A DNA stretch of 60,164 nucleotides, filler included, from Hausera hauseri (taxonomy: Eukaryota), in the NCBI GenBank assembly GCA_046269625.1. It is 10 parts of 10 records of this genome, joined end to end, with 100 filler letters (N's around TTAATTAATTAA, not from the genome) between each part and the next. Parts side by side here need not be neighbours in the genome. Positions count along the whole stretch, not along the records: positions 48,020 to 53,674 come from JBJURY010212522.1; 9 more parts are not named here. One strand, 5' to 3'. Under the pieces are notes generated by a model. The model saw only the letters and a program-made list of their open reading frames with translations, had not been told where the DNA came from and did not search any database. Made by a program: the position numbers and the translations under genes. Below are positions 17,627-60,164 of the stretch, piece after piece. Within the stretch, counting starts at the first letter, position 1. Each line of letters starts with the position of its first letter.

Positions 17627-18154
17627 TGTTGGAACCCGACTGACTAGTTGGGTAATCCGGGAAGCATGAAAAGTTATAAAGGAAGGGATGTAAATAGTGT
17701 ATATATAGATGTAATTGCATATATGTATATAGGCATGTATATTTGATTGCACATGTTGTGTTTAAATATTAGTTGTTGGGGGTTGGAATTGTAAAGTGTG
17801 TGTGATGTAAAAACAAAACATGGAAAATATTGAAAGGATGAACCCTGCCGGGGTTTGCGTAATGAGAATGAATGATTGTATGTTTGATAAATTCAGCACG
17901 CATGTTTCGGGCCAAAATTTTAAAGGTGGAGAGAATCCCCCGAAGAGCAGCACTCCGAAAACAATGGCTAAGTATTGTGAGAAAATTAATCTAAATGTTT
18001 TTTATATGATTATATATTGTTTAAGGGGGGTTTGGGATTGTCAGAGATTTTAAAAGGGAAAACACATGATATCAAAACGAGTTGGACATTTAAATATTAT
18101 GTAAATCCAACAAAAACGAATTTATTATTTAAATGTTGTGATATTGTTCCACCA
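17627..18154 (+). repeat. BEL/Pao LTR (528 bp)
   Basis: TGTTGGAAC...GTTCCACCA (8/9 inverted terminal match), with PPT upstream and PBS 2 nt downstream. Confidence 0.8.
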
Positions 18155-18156
18155 AA

Positions 18157-18174
18157 TGGTAGCAGAGCGTGGTT
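18157..18174 (+). promoter_or_regulatory. Primer-binding site complementary to initiator tRNA-Met
   Basis: TGGTAGCAGAGCGTGGTT matches the 3' end of animal tRNA-iMet (...CTCTGCTACCA). Confidence 0.85.
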
Positions 18175-18424
18175 GCTGCTCTGCACCCTGATCTGCAAGC
18201 AGCGGCCACGGCTCCTTGTCTTGTTGAAGATTCCTTCTGACCTCCTCGTATTCGGATCTTCCTCCTTGAACTGTTTAAAGAGTTTTTATTCGCTTGCGGC
18301 AAAAAACCAATCCGTGAACCCGGCTAGTCAAATAAAGATAAACAGATTGGAAAATAGTTCGGGTTCTGGGTTGGTGATGCTGCCTAGGGAGCCTGAGGCA
18401 GAGTGCCTTTCGAATTCATACACA

Positions 18425-21400
18425 ATGGCCACGGTTCTAGAAAGAACCTGGCTAAATAATAAATTGAGGAAAAGGAGAGAAGGTAATTATGTGGAAGGAT
18501 TTAAAGGTGTGAAGAACGATATTGGCGAGGAAGAGAAGGCTATAATAGAAAAGGAGCAAAACTCATCGCAACTCCAAAATCACGCTTCCAAAATCGTTAA
18601 TGAGAAGAAGGACTCTACGACAACGAATAGAGATGTTAAACAAGTGTATGTAAGAATAAGAGAGGGTAAGCTAGTGCAGATCAACTTAGAGAAGGTTAAA
18701 TCTTTAAGCGAGTTGCTTACCGAAGTCGAAATAAGATCAAAAATATCCGTGAGTTCATTGAAGTTATTCTATCAGGGTAAGAGGATAACGACTGATAAGG
18801 ATGTGGAAGATTTAACCCATGGAACTACTGTGTACATAGTCGTTGGCCTTAAGGGAGGAAGCAAACATGCCAGCAAGAGTTACGAAAAGAAGCTTAGGGC
18901 GAGTTCAGAGAACGCCAAACGAAGAACGAAAGAATTCGAAACAAGGTTTTTAATGAAGGATAAATTGAAATCTAGGCTAGAAAGTATCCACGGAAGGATA
19001 TATGTCGCCAATTCTGAAGAAAAAATTCGGAAAACCTACGATGAATTTTGCGCAGTCTATGAGGAAACTGTCTCGGAGATACTGGAGCTCCAAGTCATGG
19101 CGAAACAACAGAGCAGAACAGATGAACTGGAAGATCTGATTCAGGACAGGGAAGTGCTGAGTCAGCTGAATGCTGATGTAGTGGCAGGGTTGCGAGGTAT
19201 AGCCGCTAATCGAAGCGAACAGGAGAGAAGTCGTCAAGAGATCGCGGAGGCTACAGTGAATAATAATTTATGTCCTCGCCTGAGCCGAATCGAATTGCCG
19301 AAATTTAGTGGACATATTGCTGATTACGAGAAATGGAGGCAAACCTTTGAAGTTTGCGTACACCGAGCTCCAATATCCATAGTAGAGAAGCAGTTAAAGT
19401 TAGAAGATTGTCTCAGTGGAGATGCTAAGAAATTAGTGGCGAATTTTGGCATCAGTGAGACGTCTTACGCGGCAATTCTACAAAAGCTTGAGAGGTTTTA
19501 TGGTGGAGATCAAAGAAATTTCGCGGCGTTAATCGATGAAATCCGAAAGTTCGAAAAGGTGAGTGTAAATAATATAAAACAAATAGATAGTTTAGTTTCA
19601 CTATTGGAAGCTGTTACGGTACGACTGAGAATCATGAACAAGGGAAACGACTTAGATAGTGTACTACTATATAAGATCATTTTGGAGAAGTTACCAGAAG
19701 CCTTGATAAGCCAGTGGGAAAGGCACCGACGGAGTTGTCAAAAGGAAGAGAATATCAGTGAGTTGAAATATTGGCTAGAAGAAGAAGCGGATATACGCCG
19801 CGTATCTGCTGAATCCGCTCATGGTATAGATGTCCTAGAAAGAAAGGAACCCAGAAGTATAAGGCATGATGATTATCGACACATCCAAAGTAGTGACTAC
19901 CGTCAAAAGCATGGTTCAGAAGAAAAGAAGGTAAACTACCACCATAACCATTTTACAGAAGTCAAAGAGAAGGCGGCAACCGCAAAAGGCGTATGTTGGG
20001 CGTTTGAGAAGGGAAATTGCACTTTCGGAAAAGAGTGTAAATATTCCCATGGAAAAAAGGAAGAGAAGAACGAAAATAAGAGCAAAATGTGTAAATATTA
20101 CCAGCAGGGGAACTGCAGAAATGGAGACAAATGTCGGTTTTCGCATAGGAGAGAGAGGTCAGTGGGACGAATTAGTAATCGTGAAGGTACGACAGAGAAC
20201 AACAGTCAAGAGAAGTTGGAAGAACCATCACAAAATAGAAATGAAAGAAACGTGAAAGAGTCAGACGAGCTTGGGAGCGATCAAAAGAAGAGTTACGTAA
20301 CTGAAAGACATAACCAAAAAGAAAAAAATGAGGTGTCGTTGAGGACGATCCCAGTGATTGTGCGTAATGGGGAATATGAGGAGAAGATCAATGTATTGTT
20401 AGATGATGCTAGCACGGACAGCTACATCAGCACTTCACTGGCAGGAAGGTTACGATTAGAACAAAAACCAGAGTCGATTTCGGTAGAGGTCTTAGGTGGC
20501 GAAAAGAGAAAGAAGAGTGCAGCAAGAGTTGAGTTTCATTTAAGCAATCTGAATAGAGAACTAGAAGTGAAGGTATCAGCACTGACAATCGAAAATGTGG
20601 TAGGTAATTTAAATGCTATAAATTGGAGCATATCTAGAAGCAGATGGAACCATCTAAGAGAGGTACCCTTCCCAACAATAGTAAAATCAGGGAAAATCGA
20701 AGGGTTGATCGGAGTAAATTACAGTCAACTTCATCGAGCTATCAAAGAAGTATCCGGGAAGGAAGGGGAGCCTATAGCTCGACTAACACCGCTAGGATGG
20801 ACCTGTATCGGACCGACATCTACAAAAAGACCATTTCAGAAGCGATCGAACTTTATTAGATGTTTCTTCTCGAGTGGAGAAGAGTTAAAGGATGATTTAG
20901 AGCGGTTGTGGAGGTTAGAGGACATGTTAGAAAAGAACCAACCGTGGACAGAAGACGAAGAGAGAATAATGGAAAAATCCAAGGCTGAGATGCGATACGC
21001 GAACAACAAGTACGAAGTCAAAATCCCATGGAAGAGAAATCCACAGGACTTGCCTGATAATGATCGGATCGCTAAAAGACGGTTGTCGCTGTTGGAGAAT
21101 AAATTGGGAAAAGATTTGGAATTAAAGGAGGGCTATCAAAATCAAATAGTCGAACATGAGAAAAAAGGGTATATTAAAAATGTGACAAACGAACTGAAAG
21201 ACAAGGCGACTGGGTGGCTTCTACCACATTTTCCGGTTATAAGAAGAAGTGCGGAAACCACAAAGATTAGAATAGTATTTGACGCAGCGTCAAAAAGTAT
21301 GGGTATTAGTCTAAATGATCTGATCCACCAAGGTCCCAAATTGCAATTAGACCTGGTAGATATATTGATAAGATTCAGGAAGTATGAAATTGCCATGGTA

Positions 21401-22233
21401 TGCGATATCACAGAGATGTTCCTACAAATTGGAGTAGCACCAGAGGATCGGAAATACTTAAGATTTCTCTGGAAAGAAGAAGAATGTGTGAAAGTTTATG
21501 AGTTTCAACGATTGGTGTTTGGGTTGAATGCAGCTCCATATTTAGCGCAATTAGTAAGCCGAGTAAACGCGGAGAAACACGTAAAAGATATACCCAAAGC
21601 AGCATGGGTGGCTACAAACGCCACTTATATGGATGATAGTTTGGTATCTGTTAGGACAGAAGAAAAAGCGGTAAAGATGTATCAAGACTTAAAGTGGTTA
21701 TGGAGTCAGGCTGGGATGAATGCAAGGAAATGGGTATCAAATTCTGAGAAGTTACGCGAAATCATACCGGAAGATGAAAAGTCGGCGTGCTATCAGATCG
21801 TAGAGGAGGAGACAAAGACCAAAACTCTAGGCATGAGGTGGAATGCCAACAGTGATGTGTTCTCATTCGATAGAAGGGTCCAGTCAGAAGAGATAACTAC
21901 AAAAAGGAAGTTTTTGAGCTCGGTAGCAAAAATATTTGACCCATTAGGATTCCTTAGCAGTTACCTAATGAAAGGAAAATTAATCATTCAAGAGATGTGG
22001 ATGCACGGTGCAGATTGGGATGAACAGCTTCCAGACTACTTAATCAAACGAGCGAAAGAATGGGTAGCAGAACAACAGGATTTGGATCAGATTCAAATAA
22101 AACGTGTATTAATATCAGACCAGTCCCAATATGAGGTACATATATTCTGCGATGCATCTAAAGATGCCTATGGAGCGGTCGCTTATTTGGTCACCACAGG
22201 AGACAAGAGAATTAGCAACATAATAGTGGCGAA
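18425..22233 (+). CDS. Intact BEL/Pao Gag-Pol polyprotein (3' cut by contig end): Ubl - DUF1759 capsid - 2x CCCH - protease - RT - RNase H
   Basis: Ubl 18638-18859 ending GLKGG; IELPKFSG..YEKWRQTF; CCCH fingers 19994-20146; LLDDASTDSYI; TPLGWT; LPHFPV..TTKIRIVFDAAS; YMDD 21626-21637; IFDPLG; HIFCDAS..AYGAVAY. Start is probably ATG 18377 or 18425. Confidence 0.93.
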
Positions 22234-22333
22234 NNNNNNNNNNNNNNNNNNNNNNNNNNNNNNNNNNNNNNNNNNNNTTAATTAATTAANNNNNNNNNNN
22301 NNNNNNNNNNNNNNNNNNNNNNNNNNNNNNNNN

Positions 22334-38929: not shown

Positions 38930-41900
38930 CAACATATCCCGAACTGTTCGGATGACCCTTTCTGCCAACCCGTTAGATTGATGTTGAAACGGACTGCTGA
39001 ATATTTATTTAATTCCGTATTCCTCGAAAAACTCCAAATTTGCTTCCCGAAAAACACTTTCCGTTGTCGGTCAAAATTGACTTCGGTTTTCCAAATCTGT
39101 AAATCCATTTCACCAACATGCACTCGATAATTGTTTCTTCCATCTGCTTCCGTATTTCTGTTAAACTCACCAGCTTTCAAAACTGATAAATAATAACCAA
39201 CACATACGGATACATGCTATCTTTGTCTCCGACATACGCACTATCCATTACCAATTGGTCCAGAAAAGTATCACTCTTAACAGGAACGTACTTCTCTTTG
39301 TCTTTTTAGTTGGAATTTCCCGACGTAAGCATCCTTTCACTTTTTTCAATGACAGTAGATAGATGTGAGCACACCAATCCAACCCCCCTCCCCAGGGAAG
39401 GAGAAAAAAAGTGGTTCGTAATGAGTCATGGTGTAGAAAAAAGCGATACACGCACACACGGTAAAAAGGGCGGAGATGGGCGACACGGTCATGAGAGTGA
39501 TACACACAAGCACGCGTACTGTATGGATTTAAGTCGGGTTTAAAATTTTGAATTTCGCGCCAAAAATTTTTTTGTTTAAATTTTGGCTGTGAACAAGGGG
39601 ATTTCTGGCTCGGATTGGGTTTCACTATTCCTACCTCATTTTTGTTTAAATTTTGCAAAGCTGCTATAAATACCCATGTGAAAGTGTCACTTGTGAAAAA
39701 TGTCTCAACCACATATCTTGGCCAGAAATACCTTTCTTCACAACCAAAATTTAAACAAAAAAATTTTTGGCGGGAATTTCAAATTTTTAAACCCGACTTA
39801 AATCCACACAGTAAGCGTTCTTGTGTATCACTCTCATGACCGTGTGCCGCCCATCTGCGCCCTTTTTACCGTGTGTGCGTGTACCGCTCTTTTCTACCTC
39901 ATAACTCATCACGAACCACTTCTCTTTTCCTTCCCTGAGAGGGGCGGTTGGCTTGGTGTGCTCACATCTAACTATTAATGACATCTACTTTTGATAAACC
40001 CAGAACTGCGAAGTGATGTTGACTATATCGTTTTGTCTTCTTCATACCCAGATGGCATAGATCCACATGTATCTTCTGGATGAAATATTTCCGCATATTG
40101 TTGGAACAACTGGTACTCTGTGGTTCAGATCTTTATATACCTTGAAACTGTCTGTCATTTCCAATTTATTGATCATATTGAGAATCGCTTTCGAGAGTTG
40201 AACGTTTTCCGCCGTTCAGCTGTCTAATCGACATTTTACTTGTTGTATTTCTGTACATTTTTCTTGTTCATTTTTCATCCTTTGCAAGGTTGACCTGACC
40301 AATAATGAATTAATGTGCCTTTTTATGTTTCGGATCAGCATGTCTTGTTTGGCACTGAGCACACATCCTCATACAACCGCGACAGTCTATCTGCATTTCC
40401 ATGTTGTTCGCTTTTCCTATATTCTAGTGTGAAATTAAAATCTGTCATGTTTTCAGCCACGTTTGGAATTGCGGTTTTATTGGTTTGGTTGCTGTTTTCA
40501 TACATACCAGTGATTTATGACAGGTTCTAACCGTGAAGTGCTTACCATACAGATACTGTTTAAAATACTGCATAAACTATTTTAAAGCCAACAGTTATTT
40601 TCTTCTGAAGCAGTAGCCTTTCTCAAAAGATGAATGTTATCGACGCATACGCTACTACCTTTTCTTCATTTCCTATTTGCTGGCTAAGTACAGCTCCGAT
40701 TGCACCAAGCGATGCGTCTGTATCTAAAATAAAGTCCTTCGTTGGATCCATGAAGGTTAATATTGGCGATTCATATAGCTTCAATATCAATGGCTTGAAA
40801 CTTTCCTCACACTTCTTTGACCAAAAAATTTTTTTACAAGTACTCTTTCAAGCCGGATGCAATGGCACCTCAATGAGCGCGTAATTTTTGGTAAACCTTC
40901 TTTACTAGTTGGCCAGACCTAAAAGCGCTCTCAACGACCGCGTACACTTTGGGACTGGATAATTCTGGATTTCTATTACTTTTAGTCGATTTGTTGACAC
41001 TGCATGATTACTAATGGTATGTCCGAGAAAAATCAACTCCGAAACACTAAATCTATATTTTTGGGCATTTACTTTCAGATTTGCATTTTTTAATCTTTTG
41101 ATCACCAAGTAGTTTGCAATGTTCCGAAATCATCTTTGAGTAAATCAGCACGTCATCCAAGTATATGACAACACCCGCAAACAGTAAGTATTTGAACAGT
41201 GTATTCACTAGTCGCTGAACTGTTTTCGGGTCAGTTGAGAAGCCAAATGTTACTCGGTTAAAGCAATTTTGTTGCCACTTCATGAAAAAGGCTCTTTTCT
41301 CTTGAAAGTCGTCGTCCAACTCGACTTGATGATATGCTTTACAGAGGTCTATACTTGAGAAAATTCTAGACCCACCTAACGCATCAGATAAGGTCTGACT
41401 TTCGGAAATTGGAAATAAAATTTTCTTTGCTATTTCATTTAACTTCCTAAAATCTAAACAAATTCGGATTCCCCAAATTTCTGTTGAGTAACCATTAAAT
41501 GGGAATTCCCTTCACTTTTGCTTTACGAATAATATCAGCTTTCACCAAGTTTTTGAAAGATTCTTCAATTGTACCTTTCAGATATGCTGATTGGCTTCTA
41601 GGATTCAGAAAAATTAGTTTACCCTCAGTTTCGATTCTAGGTTTTACCAGATCCGTAAACCCTAAGTCGTAATCATATTTCATAAACACATCATAGCGTT
41701 TTATAACTTCCACTAATTGGCTCTCCGCGATTTCCATTTTTCCCTTTTGTCACAGCTTTCATCTTCTTCGATCGAGATCCAATAATGCCGGTTTTAATCA
41801 ATTTTACATCATATGCCGTTAAAATATCCATACACCAATAACTTTCGACCTGATTGTTTTACTACTATCAATTCAGTCTTATGTAGATCAGAATCCGACT

Positions 41901-44563: not shown

Positions 44564-44650
44564 ATTTCCCATATAAAGTATTGATTATCGATCCTGGGGG
44601 CCTCAAGATAGAAAATTTATATTGGCCCAGTGTCCTCCGTTCCCCCTACT

Positions 44651-47371
44651 AAATGCTGCTGCGTCAAAATCAAAAGCTTTCATACATCGGCCTGGCCTAC
44701 CAACAACCGGTTTTAAGTTTTTAATTATTTTCGATCGAAGAGGCCCTGGAAATCCGCCATAAGGCTCGCCAACAAGACCTTGAAAAGTCTCAACCATTGA
44801 CTTTGGAAGAGATAAATCTTCAGCTTTGTCAACCAATTCTTTCGCGCCTAATTTATTTTGCACCATAAATTGGACAAGATCACCGACGACTTTCGAAGAT
44901 GGCGTAACCTTAAAAGTATCTTTAAGCAATTCATGTGCAATGGCATATTTAGCTTTAACTTCTTCAAATTGATCGGCTAGACCAAGTGAAAACGATTGGA
45001 ATTGTAAATTTGTGTATTGACCACCAGGAATTTGATTGTGGTACACATTAGCATTTCCACTTCGCATTGTTGTAGTACATTCAAAAGGACAATAGAGTCT
45101 TCTTGCTTGGGCCCGGTAGGATGAGTAAATGTACAACTTTTCGATACACAATCCAGTATCTAAAGCGGTGTTCTTGAGACAAGATACGACAGCTCCCAAA
45201 GATGGCTGACTGGTCATTCCAGACATCGAATCAATTGTACAGTCAACTATACCAGCTTCAGCTTTTCCTGCAGCTTCCATTCCACCAATCAAATTTGGCA
45301 AATAGTTAAGACAGTCGAAAACACGGAAAACATCCATGCCTGTTTGAACTGCTAGTTCACAAAATTTGAAGACTACATTATATGGATAATTGGTATAACC
45401 GACTGCATTGTCATCCCTAAGAAGCATCTGAAAAGGAATATTAGGAATCAGATTTCGTCGAGTTTCCAGTTTTTCCCAAAGACATTCTCGCAAAAATCTT
45501 ATGGAAACATCAAATGTGGCTCCTCCCCAATTTTCTAAACTAAAAAATTTGATAAATTATGTGCAACGAATGGGCTAATAGCAGCTAAATCGTATGTTCT
45601 AATTCTAGTTGCCAACAAAGACTGATGTGCATCACGAAATGTTGTATCCGTAATTAAACAAGCTGGATGTTTCCAAACGGCCTTAGCAAATTCTGCTGGA
45701 CCTAATTCTAATAACTTGTCACGCCAACCTTTGGGCTATTCTGCGTCTGTGTCAATATGTGGTATCTTAGGACTCTGATCTGATGGACGTAATGAGATTG
45801 CTAACATGGTAACATGACCGTTGACCGTAACATTACCTAAGAATTTTAATAACTTTTGAGCACGGTTTAGTGATGGTTTGAACTGAGAGTTCTGGATGTT
45901 CATCAATGAAACATGTATCCACGCTTCCGTTAGGGAATCTTTCGTTTCAAGAACATTGAACAAAAACGGAGTATTTGTTTTAACTCCTCGAATTCTGAAT
46001 TCCATGAGTGATCGATGCATTTTTGCACATGCAAGACGAAAATTTAATGCATGTGCAATAACTTTACTAACAAATAATCGTAATATGGAGAAATTATGGC
46101 CCCAGCAAAGGTACTGGAAGAGTTCAACCGTATACCCATTTCTTCACAACTTCGGAAAACCTCTAAACGCCCAGAATGTGGTTGGAAATCTTTGGCTGGA
46201 TCTTCAGATGTAATCCGTTATTGAATTGAATAACCAAAGGGCTTAATGCGATCTTGATCAAGACCAAGGTCCTTCAGTGACTTACCTTCAGTAATCAAAA
46301 TCTGAGATCGTACCAAATCAACACGTGTATCATTTTCAGTTACCGTGTGTTCAACTTGAAACCTGGCGTTAACTTCAGTGAAATAGTGTTTATTCTGCAG
46401 TTCATTATAGAGAAGCTCAACTGTTCTTGCGTTTTTGTAACCAACAAATTTGGCTAAATTAACCGCGTCCGTCAACATATTGTGTCTAACATTTTCATTA
46501 AGATTTGGTGCTGGAGCTATTTCAACAATTTTCTGATGTCGTCTTTCAACACTACAATCTCGCTCATAGAGATGAACAACATTTCCAAATTTGTATCCTA
46601 ATATCTGAACTTCAATGTGTCTTGGCCTTTCAATAAACTTTTCTATGAACATATTACCATTTCCGAGAGCAGCCATAGCCTCTGATTGGACACGTTTAAA
46701 ATTTTTGGGCAACGCATTTAATTCACGATTAACACGCATTCCACGTCCACCGCCACCAAACGCTGCTTTGAGCATAATCGGTAAACTGTATTGTTCGGCA
46801 AATACCATTGCTTCGTCAACATTGTCAACTGGTTTATTCGTACCAGGCACTACGGTAACATTGGCATCGATTGCCGCTTTACGGGCCTCGACTTTATCGC
46901 CCATTTTCTGAACGACTTCGGCAGTTGGTCCTATAATTTTGATACCGACTTGAGTACAAGCCAGTGCGAATTCCGATCGTTCGCTGAGAAATCCATGGCC
47001 GGGATGAATAGCATCGACACCGACCTTCTTAGCAATTTCAATAAGTTCTGGAATGTTTAAGTAAGTTGCAACCGGTGCTAAACCGACTTCAATAAAATAC
47101 GATTCGTCGGCTTTCTGTCGATGCATTTGCATTTTGTCTTGTTCACTGTAAATGGCAACCGTTTTAATTCCCATTTCCGTACATGCACGAAAAACTCGAA
47201 TAGCAATTTCACCTCGATTTGCAACTAAAACTTTCTTGATTTTTTATGCGTAAAAACATGACTTTCTTTACTGTTAATATGCGATTGGTGAACTTTTCAA
47301 CAATTACAAGTTAATTTGGAGCAATTTCGAAATTTCGATTGTAGATTGGAAATCCGTAGAACGGACAACAT
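44651..47371 (-). pseudogene. PC: Mitochondrial pyruvate carboxylase pseudogene; intronless, internally deleted, 3'-truncated
   Basis: Presequence-like [107 protein letters not shown]; multiple stops and frameshifts. Confidence 0.95.
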
Positions 47372-48019
47372 GGTACTGATGTAATTTTGTGTCTAAGTAA
47401 AATTTGGACTAATGAACATATACTGTGTGTCGATAATATTTTTACTTTTTAAAACTATATGAATAAAGTCTTCAACACTTAAACAGTATATCAATAAATA
47501 AATGCAATTATATGACCTAACGTAACTCACTCAGGGTCATGTTAATTTAAATAAACAATCATTTAAATATTGGTAGATGCTAAATCGGCATAATCTTTCT
47601 TGGGTATAACATTTTGTATCATGTGCAATATTTATCATCAAAAATAGAGTAGAGTGTTGCCCCGTTTAAATTCCATGCCCCGGACGGTTTTTAAAATATA
47701 ACCGGGGTTTTTCAATTTTTTATGGTCAATTCAATTTAATCGTCCATTTAATTAAAGGTATGTGCATATTTAGGATTTATTAACAAATATGTTTTCCATA
47801 TTGGTGAATATCATTCTTTACATTAGCCCAATTATTAATCATCAAAACCTTGAATTACAGTATGATTGACAGTATAAAATAGTAAACAAATTTTGTTCTG
47901 TATGTAGGAATATTGGAATNNNNNNNNNNNNNNNNNNNNNNNNNNNNNNNNNNNNNNNNNNNNTTAATTAATTAANNNNNNNNNNNNNNNNNNNNNNNNN
48001 NNNNNNNNNNNNNNNNNNN

Positions 48020-48079
48020 TGGCGATATGATAAATAGCGATACAATAAATGGAGATGCGATAAATGTCGATATAATAAA
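48020..48079 (+). repeat. 15-bp minisatellite, 4 copies
   Basis: tggcgatatgataaa tagcgatacaataaa tggagatgcgataaa tgtcgatataataaa. Confidence 0.75.
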
Positions 48080-48099
48080 AGCAAATATCCATACAAAAA

Positions 48100-49790
48100 T
48101 TACGATAGTGGTGAAGTTAGGACTTGCTTTAGAACTTCAAATGCTCGTTGTTGTGATTCCTCCGAACTCCAAGCTGTTCCTTTCTTGGTTAATGCTACTA
48201 ATGGTTTAACTATTATTCAAAAAAATTATATACAAATTTCCTGTAGTAGTTGGCCATTCCTAATAGTCTTTGTAGCTCCTTAAGATATTTTGATGGTTCT
48301 AATTTTTTAAGTTTCTCCACATTTCTAGGGTTAGGTTGAATTCCTTTACTCGACAGTGTGTCCAAGAAAAGTGACGGTACTTTTAGCAAATTCGCATTTT
48401 CTCAACTTGATTTTTAAATGAGCTTGTTTCAGTCTGTCAAATACTTGTGAAATACCTTTTAAGTGTTGTTCGACGTTTTCAGAAAATATTATTACATCAT
48501 GTATGTACACTATACAACAGGTTACTCCTCGCAATACAAAATTCATACATCTTTGAAATGTGGCAGGTCATCCTGTCAAACCGAAGGGCATAACATTAAA
48601 TTCCCATTATCCGGTTCCGATAGAAAAGGCTGTTTTTTGTTTATCTTCTTCGGCAACTTCGAGTTGCCAAAATCCACATTGTAAGTCCAAAGTGGTGAAT
48701 ATTGCGGCATTTGTCAAGGCTGCAAGCATCTCATCTATCTTTGGTAATGGGTAATTATCCTTCTTTGTAACATTATTTACTTCTCTAAAATCGACACTAA
48801 ATCGTTGTACTGCGTCTTTCTTCTGCACTAATACTACTGGGGACGTCCATGGCGAGAAACTCGGTCTGATAATACCGTGTTCCACCATTTGTGCTATTTG
48901 TCTATCACATTCTTCTTTCTTAACTTCAGCCATTCTATACGGATTTTGTTTAATAGGATAGGTGTTCTCTGTAATTATATGATGTTGAATAACGTTAGTT
49001 CTGCCAATGTCATTATCATTCATAGCTATAATATCTCGATATTTATGAAATAATTGCAGTAATTTTTTCAATTTATATGGGGTTAAATCGCCGTCTTTAA
49101 ATTTGATATTTTCATCTTCTACTAAGAATGTTGCTGCGCATACCTTAACTGGTTGTAATTGTTCTAAATTGAGATTTTGCCGTAATCTGATGGCCTTTTT
49201 ATTGATGCTTTCTATTGGCAATTCTAAACATTGTACGCCTTTTGGTACAAATAAGGGATATTGTAAAATCTTATATTTTTGTTATTATATAAATTTTATT
49301 CAAACATCAAAGCTGTTTGTGGTATTGCGGTGGTATTGTTAACATTACTACTACTTGCTGTTGTGGTCCAATAATAACTTCATGAGTTAAAGCCACACTA
49401 ATATCCTCAAATGGCAAGTTAGTCAGCGTATATTTAAGGGTCTTAGATGATAAGTCCATCGAGATTCCTGAAATTTGAGACAATGCATTCATTTCTATTA
49501 CTAAGGGCACTGGAAAATTTTATCGTCCACCACAAACAGGGTGATGGTGTGTAGATTACCATCAATTCTTATTTTCATGTTCATTTTTCTTAGAAATTGT
49601 ACTTGAGTAAAGTTTGCTGCTGCTATTATCACATCACTTGGCATGATTGTTCCTTTTTGATCGTCGGGTAAATATTAATGGCGAATCCTTGACATTGATG
49701 CACCGGTATCTAGTAGTGCCATAATATTTAATCTGTTAAATTGTACACGGACATAGGGGTTATTTCCTGTTGTTATTGTTGTTTGGGTCA
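48100..49790 (-). mobile_element. Ty3/Gypsy protease + reverse transcriptase, degraded
   Basis: ALLDTGASMS; PIKQNPYR; IIRPSFSPWTSPVVLVQKKD..RFSVDFREVN..DNYPLP; KTAF; YIHDVIIFS (degraded YxDD); KCEFAKSTVTFLGH. Confidence 0.9.
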
Positions 49791-49931
49791 TAAAAATGAA
49801 TTTTGTATTATTTAGTAGAATATTCGTGGTATTATATTGTCGAAGTACGTTTGGTGGGCATGCAGTGCTGGGTAAGCAGGTGCATTCATCCAAATCTCTT
49901 GCCATAGGAAGATAATGCATGGATGTGACCT

Positions 49932-51950
49932 TTATTTCTTTATAATCAGGGTATTCTGGGAGGGTTTATAGTATGTTCGTGCTTCCGGTTCGAAGTGTTG
50001 TCGAGCTTTCTTCCTTAATAGCATATATCTGACCAGGTATTCGTCCACTGTTAACTTGATAAAGGCTTGTAACTGTTGCTCTAATTCTGGGACTAGACGA
50101 AGTTCTTTTCTTAATTTTTCAAGTTCTTTTGTATGCCCATACATCAATACTGATTGAGCCATTGAAGGAAAACATCCCAGCATAATTTGCCATGCACAAC
50201 CACGTACTTTCTTTATATTTCTTGTAGCTCCTATTTGTCTTAATATGACCATTATGGTAGTAATTATGACATATACCGAAAACTCCAGATATAACGTGAT
50301 CAAAAGTAAGGAATTTATTCCAGTAGTCGTAAGGGACCTTTTTATCTATTCTATCTAAATGGTCAATTAGCAATAACATTCCATAATTAGGTACACAATC
50401 TGATCCTTTTGTAACAGTATATGTGAATTCTGTGATGACATTTTCTCGGATATTCGGAAATAGTACTTGTTTTCTTACTGCTTCCAGGTCTGTTAAAGAA
50501 TATAATTCAGTGGAAGGATGTTCTCTATTTACTATAAAATTCATACCTTTATCTAATGGTAATAATCCAATCCTCTGTGGTATGTTCATCATAGTTGGTT
50601 GGCGTGTTTTAGTCCATATTCCGTCATTAGGTTTAAAAGCTGGATAGAAGTCTTTGTAACATGGTGCAAAGCTAATTTCGGTAGGTAATAACAATTTTCG
50701 GCTAATAGAATCTACGTATCTGATTTTAGTTATGTTTTTATCATTGTATTGGACCATTAATTCGTTCGTGCAATTTTCTTTTCGAGATGTTACCAGCGTT
50801 ACCTCTATCGGTAGGCATTGGTACACATGGAGTATTTCACCTTGTACTCTACCAAATGTTCCAGGGCCATTTCCCATAATTATGGCAATATGTTCTGGGA
50901 ATTCTCTGGCTAATATAAAGTCATGCTGGTATAATTTTTGAGTGATTTTACAATCTGTCAATACCACCATGTTATACAACTCAACTAAATCTATTTTTGC
51001 GGTGTGATAAATATAATCTATCTTGTTATTCGTGTATAGATACCACTTTATATCTTCAGTTGGTAACTTTCCTGTATTTGCAAGAGTTACGTTTATTACG
51101 AATATATCATCATAGGATGTAGAGTAAACTGTGTTCGAACCACAAGTAGATACTGCTCTTTTACGTGCCAGTACGATTTTATCTTTGTCACTGGATGACA
51201 TTAAAAATTTTAGGGAAATGGTCTGTTTCAAGGTTCGAGGGGTAGGTAAACTTATATTATGTTTATGTAGAGGTTCTTGGTATTCGTCATCGTAATATAA
51301 ATCACCTTGTATTTCATACATAGATACTTGTTTAAAGAAAGCTAGTGGACTTATTACAACCGTTTTTCCCAAAGTAGGGTGGATGCTCCTAGGGTACGTA
51401 CTCCATCGGAATATGTATAGGATAATGCGGTTAATATTTTTCCTGTGATTGCATCGAAATTCACTTTGTATTTTTTATAGTGACAGTATAATCTTCTATT
51501 TTTACTACGACAGATTCCTTTTGTCCATTTGTCATCATACTTTCTCCTTTACAAGTTTCACCGTATCCGGACCATATTTTTCCGCCTGTAACTATGCGTA
51601 ATTAGACTCGTTTTCCTATGCCTGCTTGTACTGGCTGTTGAAGGCCTACATGAATTGAATCAGTGGCTCTTCTACAATTTGCGGCTGCTAATGTCATGGG
51701 TTTGTGTAGTCCTGCTGGAATAATTACTGGATTCCACGAATTATGATCGCAGTTATAATCGAATACTACTTTATTAATTTGGCATTCCTTTACTTGCACT
51801 TGTTGATAACTGATCTTGATACAGTTTATAGTTGTAAGGACTTTTTTTCTTTACTGATATTGGATTTGCATTTTGACTTTTGCCTATATCCACCAGTGAA
51901 AGTCTGACTGTTATTTCGGGTTTGGAACTTCTAACGCTTTCGTGCTTTTT
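49932..51950 (-). pseudogene. Envelope-like glycoprotein resembling chuvirus-type G proteins; frameshifted; located upstream of pol
   Basis: VQVKECQINKVVFDYNCDHNS, LAREFPEHIAIIMGNGPGTFGRVQGEILHVYQCLPIEV..NCTNELMVQYN..YVDSISRKLL..APC..GIW; C-terminal hydrophobic segments (VYVIITTIMVIL; GCAWQIMLGCFPSMAQSVL). Confidence 0.75.
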
Positions 51951-52339
51951 AAGCTGCTAACGACTATCAGATATAGTAATAGGTGAATAATTTGTACTAT
52001 CCAATCTAAGACATTGGTATCTCTGGGGTACATTAGAGTTGTAGGGTTAAATCGTTCGAGGATTTCATCCCAACCTCCTTGTTTGGTTACCAAATCTTTT
52101 GTTAGTTTATCCATGTAATGGAATAAGCCCCTTACTACATGATGCAATTTTGCGTCAACCTCTGTTTGATTTTTAAAGCTGACCACTATACATCCTAATG
52201 CCATCAGTAGTCGATTTTGATCACATTCCTTTAGTAATCGTGTCAATGCTTTATTTAAGCCTCCTTTCATTTTATATTTCTGTAGCAATATTGTAATTTG
52301 CGATGAAAGGTTTCTAGCGGTTTCTATTATGGACTTCAA
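51950..52339 (-). CDS. Bcl-2-like domain + transmembrane segment within ORF 51911-52597
   Basis: BH2-like YMDKLTKDLVTKQGGWDEILERF, weak BH1-like DQNRLLMALGCIVVSF, then hydrophobic VLDWIVQIIHLLLYLIVVSSL. Confidence 0.5.
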
Positions 52340-52599
52340 TGGAATCGTTGTAATTGTTGGTATTTTCTTGACTTGATTTGGCTTAACTTTCTTGATTAAT
52401 TGTTCTAGAGGTTCATGAGTTGTTAATGTTACTTTTGGTATGTCTGTTTCGTTTTCATTCGATGTTCCCGTAGTAGGAATTTTTGTTTGTTCACTTTCAT
52501 CATCACTAATAGTAAATCGTTGGAAGTTATTGTATAATATATTTTCTAACATTTCTCGTTGTTCCTTACGCGTTTTCGACAAGGGTCTTTTCTTCACTT

Positions 52600-53674
52600 A
52601 TCTTTCTGGTCTTTCTTCTTCAGGATTTTTTTCATCATCACTTATTGGATTAATGTTGCATTTGCGTGGTCATCTTCTTTTTTTCTTTGTACCAAATTCC
52701 ATGGTAATCTGATGAATCTTTCCGGTAAGGAGTCCATAATCCACAATGTAATCATTGTCAGCGGCTGGTCTACCGTAAACATCTGTTTTCGCTATTATAT
52801 TAGTTTCTAGATCTAATTCTTCTAATACTTTCCTTCGGAGGTCTGTAAATTTAGTGAACATTCCTGCTGTTACTTCGATTGCTTGTTCCCGCTTATTGGT
52901 TTTAATTTCTATACTTATAGTTATTTTCTTCTATGTTTTTGTCTTAAGTCCCTACCAAGAGCTTTAAGTAGCTTTCTTGCTGCTGAAAAGCAAAATACAT
53001 CGTCCTTCGTTAGAGACAAAAGCCATGGTGCGCATTCCATTCAATTAGCCAGTGGTAGTAAATCACATTGGCATAAGGCATTCCATACCTGGTTAGGTGC
53101 TGTATTGGCTATTTGTAGTTTAGCTTTAATTATTTTTGTAATTAATTCTGGGAGTTTATCTTACAATATGGAACCGGAGGGAATATTCATTTCTGGTTCT
53201 TTTTCAGATATGCATGTTTGTATTGAATAACAAATGGTTTCAAGTAATGTCAATCGCTGGGGTGGAACCTTAGATTTGGGTAGCGGTGCGATTAATCTGT
53301 CGTTATGATGTTCTATCCATTCTCCAATTGTTCTTTTTCTGACGAGCGCATGCGAATATTCGTCTGAATCCATGTCCAGGTGTCTTTGAGTAATTTGTTC
53401 GATTACTGGGATTTCTCTTGCTTCAGTAGATTTTTCGAGTTTCCGCATTGCTGAAAAGCCTATTCGTAGTGTCTTCTGACTTTCTATTATCCATGGTATA
53501 TTGTTTTCCGCTCGCTCAGTTTTTAAGTATTCGTCTAGATATCTTTGTGCTATAATTTCTGAGTTATGATCATTATATAGGTCCAAACATCTGTAAGTTT
53601 TGTTGGTTTGTTCCATTTCGTAAATTGCGGTTAGATTTATTGTACTTATTTTCAATGTATTCACCAGTTCTGGC
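52600..53674 (-). pseudogene. Degraded upstream part of the same polyprotein, unidentified
   Basis: ORF pieces 53161-53664 and 52670-52861 are on the same strand and separated only by single stops or frameshifts. Confidence 0.4.
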
Positions 53675-53779
53675 NNNNNNNNNNNNNNNNNNNNNNNNNN
53701 NNNNNNNNNNNNNNNNNNTTAATTAATTAANNNNNNNNNNNNNNNNNNNNNNNNNNNNNNNNNNNNNNNNNNNNATTAA

Positions 53780-55706: not shown

Positions 55707-56711
55707 ATGTTACATATCGTTGTCTGTAAAACCAGTTATATGATCACGACCAATGGGTGGATAGTGACTTGTACCGCTACTCTCCTTAGTCTCCCCACCG
55801 GACAGCAAAAGCGTAAACTAAATCTGAACAAACCATCATCAGTTCGGGCTCCTTTACGCCGTTGTTTAGAGATTGACCAGATCATTCAATTAAACCTTCA
55901 ACCAGAATTTAATATGCAGATTAACAATTACATCTGGTTAAAGGATTGTCCGAATGATTCGAATTGTGATAAAAGGGACGAAAGGACACTCAAAGATTTT
56001 AATTGCAAAGAATTCATTACAGAATTCAGTTGTACTAAGCGAGAGTCTGAGAATGCCGATTCTTCGAAAATGACAAACCTTGGTTTAAAGAGCTATACGA
56101 CTTGGGGTGAGGATCTTATTCGCAATCAAAATCCTAAAAGCGCTATTGGAGTATTCGATTCGAGACACAATAGAATAAACAAACCGCACGCAATCGATTT
56201 CCAACAAAAGGTATTGAAAAGGTCAATGATTCTCTTTAGAACCGTATCCGAATTGAGGGAAAATTTGAGAATGTTAACGGCTCTCCTCAGAGCCACAGTT
56301 ATTGATTTTGATGGGGTTTCGAATCCCCTTAAAAGATTCGCGAGAGTTGCCATTTTACTAGATGCGGGTAACACTTCAATGTCGGTTCCTTATTCGCCCC
56401 TACGACGTTTGAGCTGGAGCCACAAGGTCACAATTAATGCCCACCTTGCAGGTTACGTAGAAGCCCCAGCTCATGGTAAGGAGATCACTGGACTCATGAA
56501 GTATGAGATTAAAAGGAAAGTCGGATTAGTAAAAAATAAGGTCAGTTTTCATGCATTGTCATATACATTGTTGTCGGTCGTCTTCACATTCCGCCCTGAG
56601 CTTCCCCCTAACGAACGTTGCGCTAATACCCATAGGAGAATATTACCAAATTGTTCTATTAATAATTTTTTATTTCAGATATTAAGAACCTTGATAGAGT
56701 ATGAAAAATAA
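55707..56711 (+). CDS. 334-aa ORF of unknown function
   Basis: Long stop-free ATG-initiated frame in otherwise degraded AT-rich DNA; no motif recognised. Confidence 0.3.
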   Translation: MLHIVVCKTSYMITTNGWIVTCTATLLSLPTGQQKRKLNLNKPSSVRAPLRRCLEIDQIIQLNLQPEFNMQINNYIWLKDCPNDSNCDKRDERTLKDFNCKEFITEFSCTKRESENADSSKMTNLGLKSYTTWGEDLIRNQNPKSAIGVFDSRHNRINKPHAIDFQQKVLKRSMILFRTVSELRENLRMLTALLRATVIDFDGVSNPLKRFARVAILLDAGNTSMSVPYSPLRRLSWSHKVTINAHLAGYVEAPAHGKEITGLMKYEIKRKVGLVKNKVSFHALSYTLLSVVFTFRPELPPNERCANTHRRILPNCSINNFLFQILRTLIEYEK

Positions 56712-56782
56712 ACGTTATACTAAATGAAATAGGAATAAATCCTGTTATCTCTGAAACCTTTATAAACATCCTCATAAACTTC

Positions 56783-59700
56783 TTGTTATTTGTATATCGC
56801 GTCAGACCTGTAGAAATATTGCAACAGATATTAGAAGAAATCATAAACAAAAAAAGTAACAAGTTATCTGTTAAGGGGTATTACCTATTTAATAAATGTT
56901 ATATAAATAAAAGATTTAGATTTAGATATACTTTACTGAACAAGAACATACCAATCCTCAAAAGGAAATTAAAACAGTTAAGGGTATTACCAAAAGGGAT
57001 GGAAATGGAGAAACCGTCAAAGGAAATAGAAAATAAGAAAACAAAAAAACTTAAAAAAATAAAATTAGAGAAGAAAAGGAAAGAGTTCGAAGAACACAAA
57101 CCGGGACAGATTATCGTAAAAATAAACCAAAACCCCCCAGTCGTTTTTGATGTTAACGAAATGGAAACCATTAATACGTTGAAAAGAAAAATACCTGAAA
57201 AATGTTGTATGAGAACGGAAAAAACTATAATCATATATAAGAGTGAAAGACGGAACAATGACGAAATGATACAGAAGATCCCACATGGGACGATTATAAG
57301 CATCAATAGTGGATTACGAGGAGGGAGTGTTAGTGAAAGTGAAGTCGACGAATCAAAAAACATCGAGGTACAAAACGAAGATAGTAAAAATGATCCAAAC
57401 AAGAAGTCATGACATTAGATGACAAATCAGATATAAAATCACGGAATGAATATCTAGCACCAAAGTTAAAGCGTATCGAGCTTCCGAAATTCGGCAGAAA
57501 CGTTGCGGAATTCAAGAAATGGCGACAGATTTTCAAAAATTGTGTAGAAAAAACTTCGCTTTCGGATATAGACAAACAGATGCAACTAGAAAATTGTATG
57601 GAGAAGCAAAACGCTTAGTTCAAAACTATCTCTCAGAAGATTCCTACAAAGCAGCTGTCGGAAAATTGGAACGATATTATGGAGAAAACCAGAGAAATTA
57701 TGCCTCTCTTATGTCGGAAATTATAGAATTTCAAAAGATAAGTGTACATAATATCAAAGGATTATATTCCTTTGCCACGTTATTGGACTCCGTCATTATA
57801 AGATTAAAATATTTAGACCGTGAAACGGAGCTAGAAGGTGGTCTACTATACCAAAATCTAATCCAAAAATTACCCGAGGTTATGGTGTTAACATGGTAGC
57901 GTTATCGCAAAGACAAAGACAAAAAACGGAACGTGCAGAATTTGAAGGCGTGATTAGAAAAAGAAACAGAGTTAAAACATATTGCTGCAGAAGGAGTTTA
58001 TGGAATAAATGTCTTGATACCAACCAAAAATAGACATTCTTAAAGATTAGTGAAAAATTCCTTTTTTACCGATAAAATGGAGGAAAGGTATAAGTCCACA
58101 AACAAAATTGATTTCGGCACTAATGAAAAAGAAAATTAAAAAATAACAATTGTTGGAAAGAAAAGGAGGTCCAACGGAGACCCTGTAAATATTTCCTAGC
58201 TGGAAAATGCCAATTCGATAAATCATGCATATTTCGACATGAAAAGAGAAATCAGAGTGGTTATAAGAATACAAATCAAAAGCCTTGTTCATATTTTCAA
58301 AGTGGAAACTGGAGGTAAGGTGAAAATTGTTGGTTTAAACATGAGAAATTTCCATACGTTTCAAGGCGAGAAGCAAACTGCTTGAAAATCCTTGATGGAA
58401 AATTATACATAGAGAGAACTTTCAAAACCTCAATTGATGTTGACAGAACTATATCACAATCAAACGATAATTCTTGCCAAACGAATTAATGTGAATTCTC
58501 AGAGAGACGGACTTATGTGACGAAAATGGGAGATGAGAAATCTAAAGAACAAGACAAAATAGCCTTGAGGACGATATCAGCGTACTTGATCTACGGAACC
58601 AAGAAAGTTAAATGAATATGTTACTAGATGATACTGGCACAGACAGTTTCCTGGAAGAAGACATTGTACGGCAATTGGAACTCAGTGGAGAGGAGAATGT
58701 TACAGTGGCCGTAGACGGAGATACGCAACAGAAACACAAAATGACAAGAGTTCACATGATATTGCAAAGTTTGGACAATAGCATTTGTGAACGGTTCAAC
58801 GCACTATTCATGAAAAAGCCAACTGGAAACATTAATGCTGTAAACTGGGCGATTGAAAAAAGACGATGGCCCCACTTACGAGGTATTGCATTTGTAGAAG
58901 TGAGAAGAAATGAACACGTAGACAGAATCATAGGTGCAAATTACATACATCTTCACAAATCTATAAACGAAATTTCAGGCACACCGGAAGGACCAATAGC
59001 TAGACTGACTCCCGTTGGTTGGACATGTGTCGGAATTCTGAATGAACGGAAAGGCAATTTAGTAAGTAACAATTTAGTACGAACATACTGGACTAAGGTA
59101 GACGAAATGAACAAAAATATAAAAAGATTATGGGAAATTCTTCAGATTACAAAAGATAAAATGAAAAAGACTGAACATGGAAGGTATGAGGTTTCTCTGC
59201 CCTGGAAAGACAAAATTGAGATACCAAAATCCAGACATATGGCAGAAAAAAGACTCGAGTATCTGCAGAAGAAACTAAGCTCAGATAACTTGATGAATGT
59301 AGCTTATGAGCAAGTGATTAAAGATCATATTAAAAAAGAATATGTGGAGTTAGTAGAAAAGGCGGAAAATGAAACGAATTATTGGACGTTACCACATTTC
59401 CCCGTTCAGAAACCGGATAGGTCTACCACGAAAACCAGATTAGTATTCGACGCAGCTGCAAAGGTAAAAGGGAAAAGCTTAAATGACTTGTTACACTCAG
59501 GACCAAAGTTACAGCAAGATTTAGTAGAAATTCTAATCCGCATGAGAAAGAATGAAATCGTGTTAATTTGTGACATAGCTGAGATGTTCCTACAAATTAG
59601 TATTTCACCAGATGACAGAAAATTTGTACAATTCTTGTGGTGAAGGAATGGTAAGGTTGAAACGTATCAATTCACAAGACTAGTATTTGGATTGAATGCC

Positions 59701-60164
59701 TCACCATTCTTGGCAGATATGTTTGAGAACAAATATCCACGAGCAGTTGAAACAATTAGACAATCAACATACATGGATGACTGTATAGATTCCACTGAAA
59801 CAGAAAGTGAAGCTATTAAGTTATACTACCAGTTGAAAGAAATCTGGGAAGCAGCAAAAATGAATACCCATAAATGGTTATCGAATTTGGAACAATTATA
59901 TCGCGAGATACCGGAAAACGAAAAAGCAAAGGAATACGCCTTCAAAAGTGAGGTCAGTTGTACGTCGAAAACCTTAGGACTTAAGTGGAATGTAAAAGAA
60001 GACTGTTTAACTTTCGACGGCGGAGGGAATCGCGGAAGTGGATTGACCAAAAGAAATGTCCTAAATGCCTTAGCCAAAATATTTCACCCCTTGGGTCTAG
60101 TGAGCACTGTTACTATAGCAGGTAAATGTTTATTGCAGGAAATGTTGTTAAACGGGTTTGACTG
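56783..60164 (+). mobile_element. Degraded BEL/Pao gag-pol: Ubl - DUF1759 - 2x CCCH - PR - RT, running off-window
   Basis: Ubl 57107-57325 ending SGLRGG; KRIELPKFGR..FKKWRQIF; CKYFLAGKCQFDKSCIFRH at 58184-58240; LLDDTGTDSFL; LPHFPV..TTKTRLVFDAAA; YMDD 59770-59781; IFHPLG. Confidence 0.9.

Follow-up and report, generated by a model that had tools for sequence, protein, structure and literature searches.

The question raised by this locus is whether the coding sequence lying directly in front of a retroelement envelope (Env) encodes a Bcl-2-like domain, and whether the hydrophobic segment between the two serves both as the tail anchor of the former and as the signal sequence of the latter. The window analysed is a stretch of 60,164 nucleotides from Hausera hauseri (assembly GCA_046269625.1) made of 10 parts separated by filler, and the part of interest, from contig JBJURY010212522.1, occupies 48020..53674 between N-spacers at 47920-48019 and 53675-53774. 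It carries part of a single decayed GAG-ENV-POL Gypsy element, all of whose features described here lie on the minus strand. Following that strand, a broken upstream polyprotein region (52927..53673), 43% identical to residues 734-1024 of the relative P0001 and without any Pfam match below E 0.1, is followed by a likely ubiquitin-like domain (52691..52930) that is common to P0001, P0154 and P0006. The ubiquitin-like label is a weak one: a profile of the domain recovers P0006, itself outside the model, at iE 1.5e-8, the best PDB row is the UHRF1 UBL at E 0.7, and Pfam returns ubiquitin at E 0.098 in one of three members. Next come the stop-to-stop ORF of 228 aa that drew attention to the locus (51911..52597) and a gB/chuvirus-type Env (PF24664; 50139..51934) with several frame changes and stops, which Pfam identifies as a Monjiviricetes-type fusion glycoprotein (E 8e-34 over 50122-51474) and which is 53-69% identical to that of P0001 in four matched pieces, about 61% overall. 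An aspartic protease remnant (49507..49758; RVP E 0.012, with a match to P0154 1420-1503 at E 3.5e-5) and a broken reverse transcriptase (RT) with the start of RNase H (48109..49224; RVT_1 E 2.9e-8) complete the series. Since PF24664, RVP and RVT_1 follow one another in this order on the minus strand, Env precedes Pol in the element, and the contig represents a GAG-ENV-POL Ty3/Gypsy element whose gB/chuvirus-type Env lies ahead of protease and RT. Both contig ends are assembly breaks, and for this reason neither gag nor integrase nor LTRs are visible. That Env and Pol were brought together by chance from two elements was ruled out by the RT, which clusters with the Env-before-Pol relatives to which the Env tree also assigns the window Env (8 rows, support 99) and shares 49-60% identity with them, versus 37% with another Gypsy in the window.

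The copy in the window is a pseudogene, the remains of a dead element. According to the original prediction, the hydrophobic segment leads past one stop into the glycoprotein. This does not hold: the Env match departs from the ORF frame near 51920, just past the hydrophobic segment, and continues in a different frame as far as about 51830; mapping of P0001 on the window places further Env frame changes near 51830, 51500, 51380 and 50290. The ORF frame itself carries further stops at 51886, 51853 and 51604, and read-through of a single stop is ruled out by these multiple frame changes and stops. In comparison with P0001, the window has stops at 52672, 52600 and 51913; upstream, the ORF frame still matches P0001 across those at 52600 and 52672, and the ORF is a polyprotein fragment without a start of its own. 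The fusion of the domain to Env is evident in relatives, not in the window copy. In the public run X1, 17,642 contigs map on the stretch, 13,004 of them less than 95% alike, and 816 differences from the window are counted, 40 of which are listed. This pattern fits that expected from a family of many diverged copies, with the proviso that X1 is not independent and may be the source sample of the window, and that contig depth does not equal copy number.

The intact state of this arrangement is preserved in P0001 (1,963 aa), the sole return among 3,995 candidates when the Env piece was used to search for longer proteins. Its homologue of the ORF (residues 1140-1365, 64% identity) is in frame with a gB/chuvirus-type Env, and when the protein is mapped on the window the domain order is the same in both. 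A broader HMMER search with Env found 421 proteins, 150 of them listed, of which 24, picked by rank or length, were scanned against Pfam. A Bcl-2-like domain in frame with Env is present in five relatives (P0001, P0004, P0008, P0157 and P0159), and the order in relatives is a likely ubiquitin-like domain, the Bcl-2-like domain, a hydrophobic segment, Env, protease, RT, RNase H and integrase. Gag or zinc-knuckle matches are also present, together with integrase. Relatives can be as long as 4,099 and 4,844 aa; the longer of these two has ankyrin repeats, and the shorter, P0159, is a single ORF that unites Bcl-2-like domain, Env, protease, RT, RNase H and integrase. An unbiased case is P0008, which was retrieved through Env alone: Pfam places Bcl-2 at residues 9-70, directly before Env, at E 0.00096 (20.1 bits, below the PF00452 cut-off of 31.4 bits), and each of its 60 displayed PDB rows is Bcl-xL or Bcl-2, with a best E of 0.0099. 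P0004, selected by a motif scan, has GGW at a similar place and a Pfam Bcl-2 row at E 0.2 (12.7 bits). Of the proposal of a captured apoptosis regulator fused to Env, what is supported is a retroelement with a divergent Bcl-2-like domain in frame with Env, as in these five relatives; the window copy as such is a pseudogene. What the window contributes is a real and divergent Bcl-2-like domain before a retroelement Env, one more divergent example of its kind.

In the ORF, the putative Bcl-2-like helical domain spans aa 58-184 (52046..52426), with alpha4-alpha8 assigned by profile and alpha1 and alpha2 by eye only. The motifs quoted for it are all present (DQNRLL at aa 126-131, YMDKL from aa 161 and GGW at aa 174-176), and the claimed Bcl-xL-like spacing is accurate, the distance from Tyr to Trp being 15 residues both in the ORF and in the Bcl-xL chain. 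The BH1 position and the central hydrophobic helix alpha5 (52169..52225) have DQNR in place of NWGR. The BH2 GGW (52070..52078) is kept in P0001 and the other domain-bearing relatives (5/5); the BH2 motif (hydrophobic-x-x-x-GGW), which closes alpha6-alpha7, is found gap-free in each of the six members, and over 35 positions around GGW the alignment has no gaps and shows a common amphipathic pattern. The Trp preceding GGW is present in P0001 and P0004 and missing from the window copy. A basic residue is retained at the BH1 Arg position in 6/6 members, and from there to the BH2 Trp there are 47 residues in the window, 47 or 49 across members and 49 in Bcl-xL. Residues 10-25 were considered as BH4 and rejected; a by-eye match with P0157 and P0159 suits aa 62-72 better. 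Between the window and P0001, alpha4 is identical at 13 of 14 positions and alpha5 at 19 of 19, better kept than Env at about 61%, which suggests that selection acts on a folded alpha4-alpha5 core. Searched against the PDB, the five-sequence profile A3 has its best match in Bcl-xL (E 5.2e-4; profile positions 59-123, corresponding to alpha4-alpha8), and of 160 rows the 60 shown include 59 from the Bcl-2 family. There is, by these profile comparisons, remote Bcl-2 homology over alpha4-alpha8, inflated by the selection for GGW. The domain is very probably of Bcl-2 ancestry, an estimate that is carried by the relatives and by position and not by the window sequence alone.

The interpretation that we favour on balance is that the window holds a decayed fragment of a Burro-like Gypsy element and that the likely Bcl-2-fold domain of its relatives, which the Env signal would anchor, would likely dampen host cell death. 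By standard polyprotein processing, as generally known, the upstream polyprotein would remain cytosolic and the hydrophobic segment, acting as an internal signal, would be inserted into the ER; signal peptidase would cleave after it, freeing Env into the lumen, and Pol would return to the cytosol after the Env membrane helix. The upstream product would end in the helical domain, a short linker, the membrane helix and about 8 lumenal residues, a topology equal to that of a tail-anchored Bcl-2 protein but reached by co-translational delivery to the ER, and the element's protease would probably separate this product from Gag. A membrane-bound Bcl-2-like product would in this way be made one-to-one with Env, and it would likely bind pro-death Bcl-2 proteins, or other ER regulators of death or autophagy, during Env and particle production. 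We give even chances to the prediction that the domain is anti-apoptotic and holds off host cell death while particles are produced. It is conceivable, and put forward here tentatively, that throughout a clade of Env-bearing Gypsy elements the making of Env also yields a functional Bcl-2 of the viral kind, with the leftover signal serving as tail anchor, one ER-anchored inhibitor of cell death per Env and a module that is kept or lost by lineage.

The function is where the favoured interpretation meets its first competitor. As was already recognized for the window, NWGR is not conserved, and the signature is in fact absent from all six members; there is also little room for alpha3, judged by eye in alignment A3. 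Together, these two features make a normal BH3 groove doubtful. NWGR is also missing from many viral Bcl-2 proteins, and several poxviral proteins with a Bcl-2 fold block innate or stress signalling. It is thus imaginable that a Bcl-2-descended domain, anchored by the Env signal, no longer binds BH3 and acts as a scaffold that blocks innate or stress signalling or, in the manner of a long Env leader peptide, tethers Gag to Env membranes. In addition to the loss of NWGR and the short or missing alpha3, such a role would suit a domain placed within the Gag-side product, between the likely ubiquitin-like domain and the signal, whose alpha4-alpha5 core is the best-kept part between the window and P0001. 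Many domain-less relatives, however, retain signal and Env, hence the domain is unnecessary for assembly, and planarian relatives also bear BIR domains (PMC6431247), which points to a theme of cell-death control. We regard the scaffold role as somewhat unlikely.

The favoured interpretation also depends on what the hydrophobic segment is. The internal Env signal sequence and predicted anchor lies at 51935..52012, with a hydrophobic stretch at aa 196-213 and a polar one at aa 214-221, and a hydrophobic segment after BH2 is present as described, its top 19-mer beginning at aa 196 (KD 2.14). In this glycoprotein family the Env ectodomain starts with an [AG][YF]DC motif. A strongly hydrophobic 12-mer (KD at least 2.0) lies at most 45 aa upstream of the motif in 65/83 fetched proteins, and the predicted -1 residue is Ala, Gly, Ser or Thr in 51 of these 83 proteins with the Env start motif, most of which are stand-alone glycoproteins in which the segment is plainly an N-terminal signal peptide. 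In the window and in P0001 the segment stands at the same offset as in the stand-alone glycoproteins, with Thr at -3 and Ala at -1, and a signal-peptidase site is predicted after Ala221. Polyprotein relatives without the domain have a segment in the same place in 10 of the 10 checked (KD 1.28-2.19), to be compared with KD 1.01-2.14 in the six domain-bearing members. The segment belongs to Env because domain-less relatives carry it and because it lies anywhere between 19 and 59 aa from BH2, this distance being 19-25 aa in the window, P0001 and P0004 and 49-59 aa in P0008, P0157 and P0159. It is almost certainly, on this comparative evidence, the Env signal sequence first of all, and it is likely the signal that doubles as an anchor and not the reverse. 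The original prediction of a shared segment is therefore upheld for the Env signal sequence and is not supported for a captured Bcl-2 tail, given that 10/10 domain-less relatives have it.

That the segment stays on the Bcl-2-like domain as an anchor is predicted with good probability. A hydrophobic helix follows BH2 in 6/6 members and would become C-terminal only given the predicted cleavage. Alternatively, the segment might be a signal only: after signal peptidase, a second cut within the membrane, or removal through the protease of the element, would leave the domain soluble or part of Gag; intramembrane trimming of leftover signals is known from the hepatitis C core. The signal-like length of the segment, its occurrence in domain-less relatives and a BH2 linker that varies threefold would agree with this, but the BH2-to-helix distance of 19-25 aa in the window, P0001 and P0004 resembles that of a cellular tail anchor, and the linker between BH2 and helix is identical at 9 of 12 positions between the window and P0001. 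This alternative, which is not exclusive of the other ones, is considered unlikely.

A more radical objection is that the domain is no Bcl-2 homologue at all, and that a chance GGW after an amphipathic helix, or a death-fold or generic helical bundle in the window lineage, has been mistaken for one. Several results would be in line with it. Compared with Pfam, the window ORF has no Bcl-2 row, its only row being Death at E 0.084; alone against the PDB it gives 5 rows, none of them Bcl-2. Searches with the ORF alone found no homologue of 125-399 aa, and scans of viral and metagenome contigs found no relatives of it; in the ESM Atlas its best match (0.90) is to unnamed clusters, and the corresponding part of P0001 has no usable named match. 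No member reaches the curated PF00452 cut-off of 31.4 bits, two of five trimmed members have any Pfam Bcl-2 match (best E 2.5e-5), and whole P0004 and whole P0157 yield no Bcl-2 rows in the PDB. The hhalign probability is 15% for P0157 and 7% for P0008, versus 0.2% for the control P0154. With a two-sequence profile, 22 of 30 rows are Bcl-2, the best standing at rank 6 with a non-significant E of 0.54. Two AlphaFold models (pLDDT 38 and 40) are too poor for a fold test: with a low-pLDDT model, Foldseek ranks Mcl-1 first at E 1.2 and shows five more Mcl-1 or BAX rows, none significant, and with the second, so poor that these two results carry no weight, the top 50 of VIA-align contain no Bcl-2 chain and BFVD returns nothing under E 0.16. 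The earlier caution that the match lies mainly in BH2 was well founded, the support centring on alpha6-BH2, given that once the BH2 end is removed from 46 to 536 of 1000 shuffles reach the scores obtained between the window and its relatives.

The objection is nevertheless opposed by the comparison among members. The domain of the window holds the same position before Env as that of the Pfam-positive P0008, and the score of the window core against P0008 exceeds all 2000 shuffles. A core profile built from the window ORF, P0001, P0004 and P0008 and anchored on GGW found, among 165 proteins, the new members P0157 (iE 3.9e-5) and P0159 (iE 0.014), the next best being at 0.93; these E-values are too significant, because P0004 was picked by its GGW and the profile is anchored on it. 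When the lineage of the window is left out, a profile of the four outside members searched against 811 targets recovers P0001 (iE 3e-4) and the window ORF (iE 0.0019) at the top of all non-members, with the next at 0.24. Of 28 fetched proteins having at least 100 aa upstream of the Env start, 5 show GGW at 40-85 aa ahead of it, versus about 0.1 expected in that span from its 10 occurrences in 122,810 fetched residues, the span having been picked post hoc and the five proteins representing four lineages. The Death row, in turn, appears in 1/5 trimmed members only (E 0.036-0.084). An origin outside the Bcl-2 family is accordingly held to be quite improbable. Least credible is a pro-death or pore-forming domain akin to Bax, Bak or BOK that aids the exit of particles from the cell, for which speak a strongly hydrophobic alpha5 (mean KD 1.1-1.8) and an ER anchor that would be like that of BOK, and against which stand the pro-survival identity of the top PDB rows shown (Bcl-xL, Bcl-2, A1) and the small profit that a germline-transmitted element would presumably draw from killing its host cell.

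The distribution of the Bcl-2-like module is patchy. A quick version of the Env tree, with 32 rows, sets 17 polyprotein-type rows apart at support 100; the other 15 are mostly stand-alone glycoproteins. Rows with the Bcl-2-like domain are scattered over four distinct positions between domain-less relatives, and their labels cluster no better than shuffles (259/500, with P0159 unlabelled). P0154, for example, keeps the ubiquitin-like domain and lacks the Bcl-2-like one, yet it is sister to P0008. The domain is absent from 11 of the 16 polyprotein relatives having an N-terminal extension, so it is dispensable. The tree, as a comparison of Env sequences, shows the scatter of the putative domain and not the order of gains and losses, and the simplest reading would be a single early gain followed by repeated loss. 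The lineage of the window sits on a long branch, with Env about 30% identical to all relatives except P0001.

Several known systems share parts of this organization. GAG-ENV-POL elements with gB-type Env have been described in flatworms, nematodes and bryozoans, and in these errantivirus Envs a transmembrane domain lies on either side of the ectodomain (Chary and Hayashi 2026, PMC13524379). The window agrees with these errantiviruses with HSV/gB-type Env in gene order and in the class of Env, and six Schmidtea Env rows of the supplement have, by eye, a Y.VYQE.D-like motif in common with P0004 and P0008; Bcl-2 is not mentioned in the available part of that source. Anakin elements carry the chuvirus glycoprotein (PMC7642597; named in PMC12440569), that is, the same glycoprotein family on an LTR retroelement, but they are BEL/Pao, whereas the window RT groups with Gypsy.

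The closest parallel is planarian Burro, for which PMC6431247 describes one polyprotein with Gag, MATH, Ubi-like, BCL2, mononegavirus-like Env, protease and Pol. Its Env sits between BCL2 and protease (Arkhipova and Yushenova 2019, PMC6431247), and the BCL2-like motif is credited there to Grohme et al. 2018. The BCL2-Env-protease architecture is, by that account, already known. The order of Ubi-like domain (a weak label here), BCL2-like domain, Env, protease and RT of Burro/GYPSM1 is shared with the elements studied here, its part from Ubi-like domain to protease being seen in the window and P0001. Further common points are an Env in frame between gag and pol and the occurrence of decayed copies with stops and frameshifts (PMC6431247). 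The element in the window shows the Burro domain order and is, by its predicted domains, Burro-like. The comparison is made by description, the fetched sequences including no named Burro protein. Burro features also comprise a size of >30 kb, an ORF of about 4,900 aa, BIR, MATH and ankyrin cargo and a planarian host, whereas the window contig measures 5.7 kb; MATH, BIR, ankyrin and LTRs are outside this contig or not seen there. A second-hand account of a 2026 study states that the IAP region of Burro1 protects stem cells (PMC13465017), and the available portion of another source mentions BURRO1 expression and not Bcl-2 (PMC8532177). The Burro account, in the part at hand, does not mention a signal sequence or anchor (PMC6431247), and a shared Env signal and Bcl-2 anchor was not found in the literature consulted; the primary Burro papers (Grohme et al. 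2018; the 2026 Dev Cell Burro1 study) may treat it. In the sources available in part, a retroelement Bcl-2 domain is so far listed only as the planarian Burro motif, and the function tested there is that of the IAP region, known second-hand. Modest additions to this picture are a membrane segment that would serve two uses and the uneven occurrence of the domain across four lineages. In six sequences, representing these four lineages, the domain immediately precedes the Env signal; it is optional, and as a small unit of about 160 aa it is predicted to be ER-anchored and one-to-one with Env. If this is true, a reverse-transcribing element would possess a functional Bcl-2 mimic and the Bcl-2 family a new route of membrane anchoring, which would bear on how animal stem cells come to tolerate, or even benefit from, giant elements that carry Env.

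Mimics of Bcl-2 are characteristic of large DNA viruses. With cellular and DNA-virus Bcl-2 proteins (Bcl-xL, A1, Mcl-1; PF00452) the domain appears to share the alpha4-alpha5-alpha6-BH2-alpha8 succession, the GGW and, after the predicted processing, a C-terminal membrane helix. It differs from the cellular proteins in the absence of NWGR and in an alpha5-alpha6 region two residues shorter in 4/6 members, and, unlike them, it would be made inside a polyprotein and take as its anchor a co-translational ER signal.

At the level of the proteins related to the Gypsy element through Env, the distribution of the Bcl-2-like domain is uneven. The relatives P0154 and P0006 lack this domain despite having kept a likely ubiquitin-like domain (residues 297-378 and 479-549, respectively). 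In the Env tree, P0154 is nevertheless placed with a support of 99 as sister to P0008, a relative that bears the Bcl-2-like domain, which suggests that the domain has been lost. The DEDDh-like exonuclease motifs recognized by eye upstream of Env in the relative P0017 (1-367) indicate that the slot ahead of the hydrophobic Env signal sequence accepts varied cargo. Downstream of Env, P0003, P0006 and P0151 present from 2 to 7 aspartic-protease-like stretches per relative, and P0151, a protein of 4,844 aa, also contains ankyrin repeats and a C2H2 finger. The NCBI record of P0002, a complete Env-Pol retroelement polyprotein, assigns it to a metagenome bin of Flavobacteriaceae, in which it probably represents animal DNA.

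The window itself consists of short contigs strung together with N spacers, and the adjoining of two contigs across a spacer does not imply adjacency in the genome. On its minus strand, a pyruvate carboxylase stretch (44603-47243), spread across several frames and apparently devoid of introns, is likely a pseudogene or retrocopy. The same strand holds a long ORF (3-1946) whose TCP-1/cpn60 chaperonin match is limited to aa 154-321, and a stretch judged DEDDh exonuclease-like by eye (7172-7795) for which no Pfam match was found. A fragmented family B DNA polymerase lies on the plus strand (11110-13464), and a self-complementary stretch of approximately 620 bases, 81% alike, occupies 39356-39974. 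Two plus-strand stretches (17990-22285 and 56705-60164) hold BEL/Pao copies. One of them has CCCH zinc fingers in its Gag region, where aa 220-285 also match a ubiquitin-like domain (E 8.6e-4), and the ubiquitin match in the second copy is weak (E 0.068).
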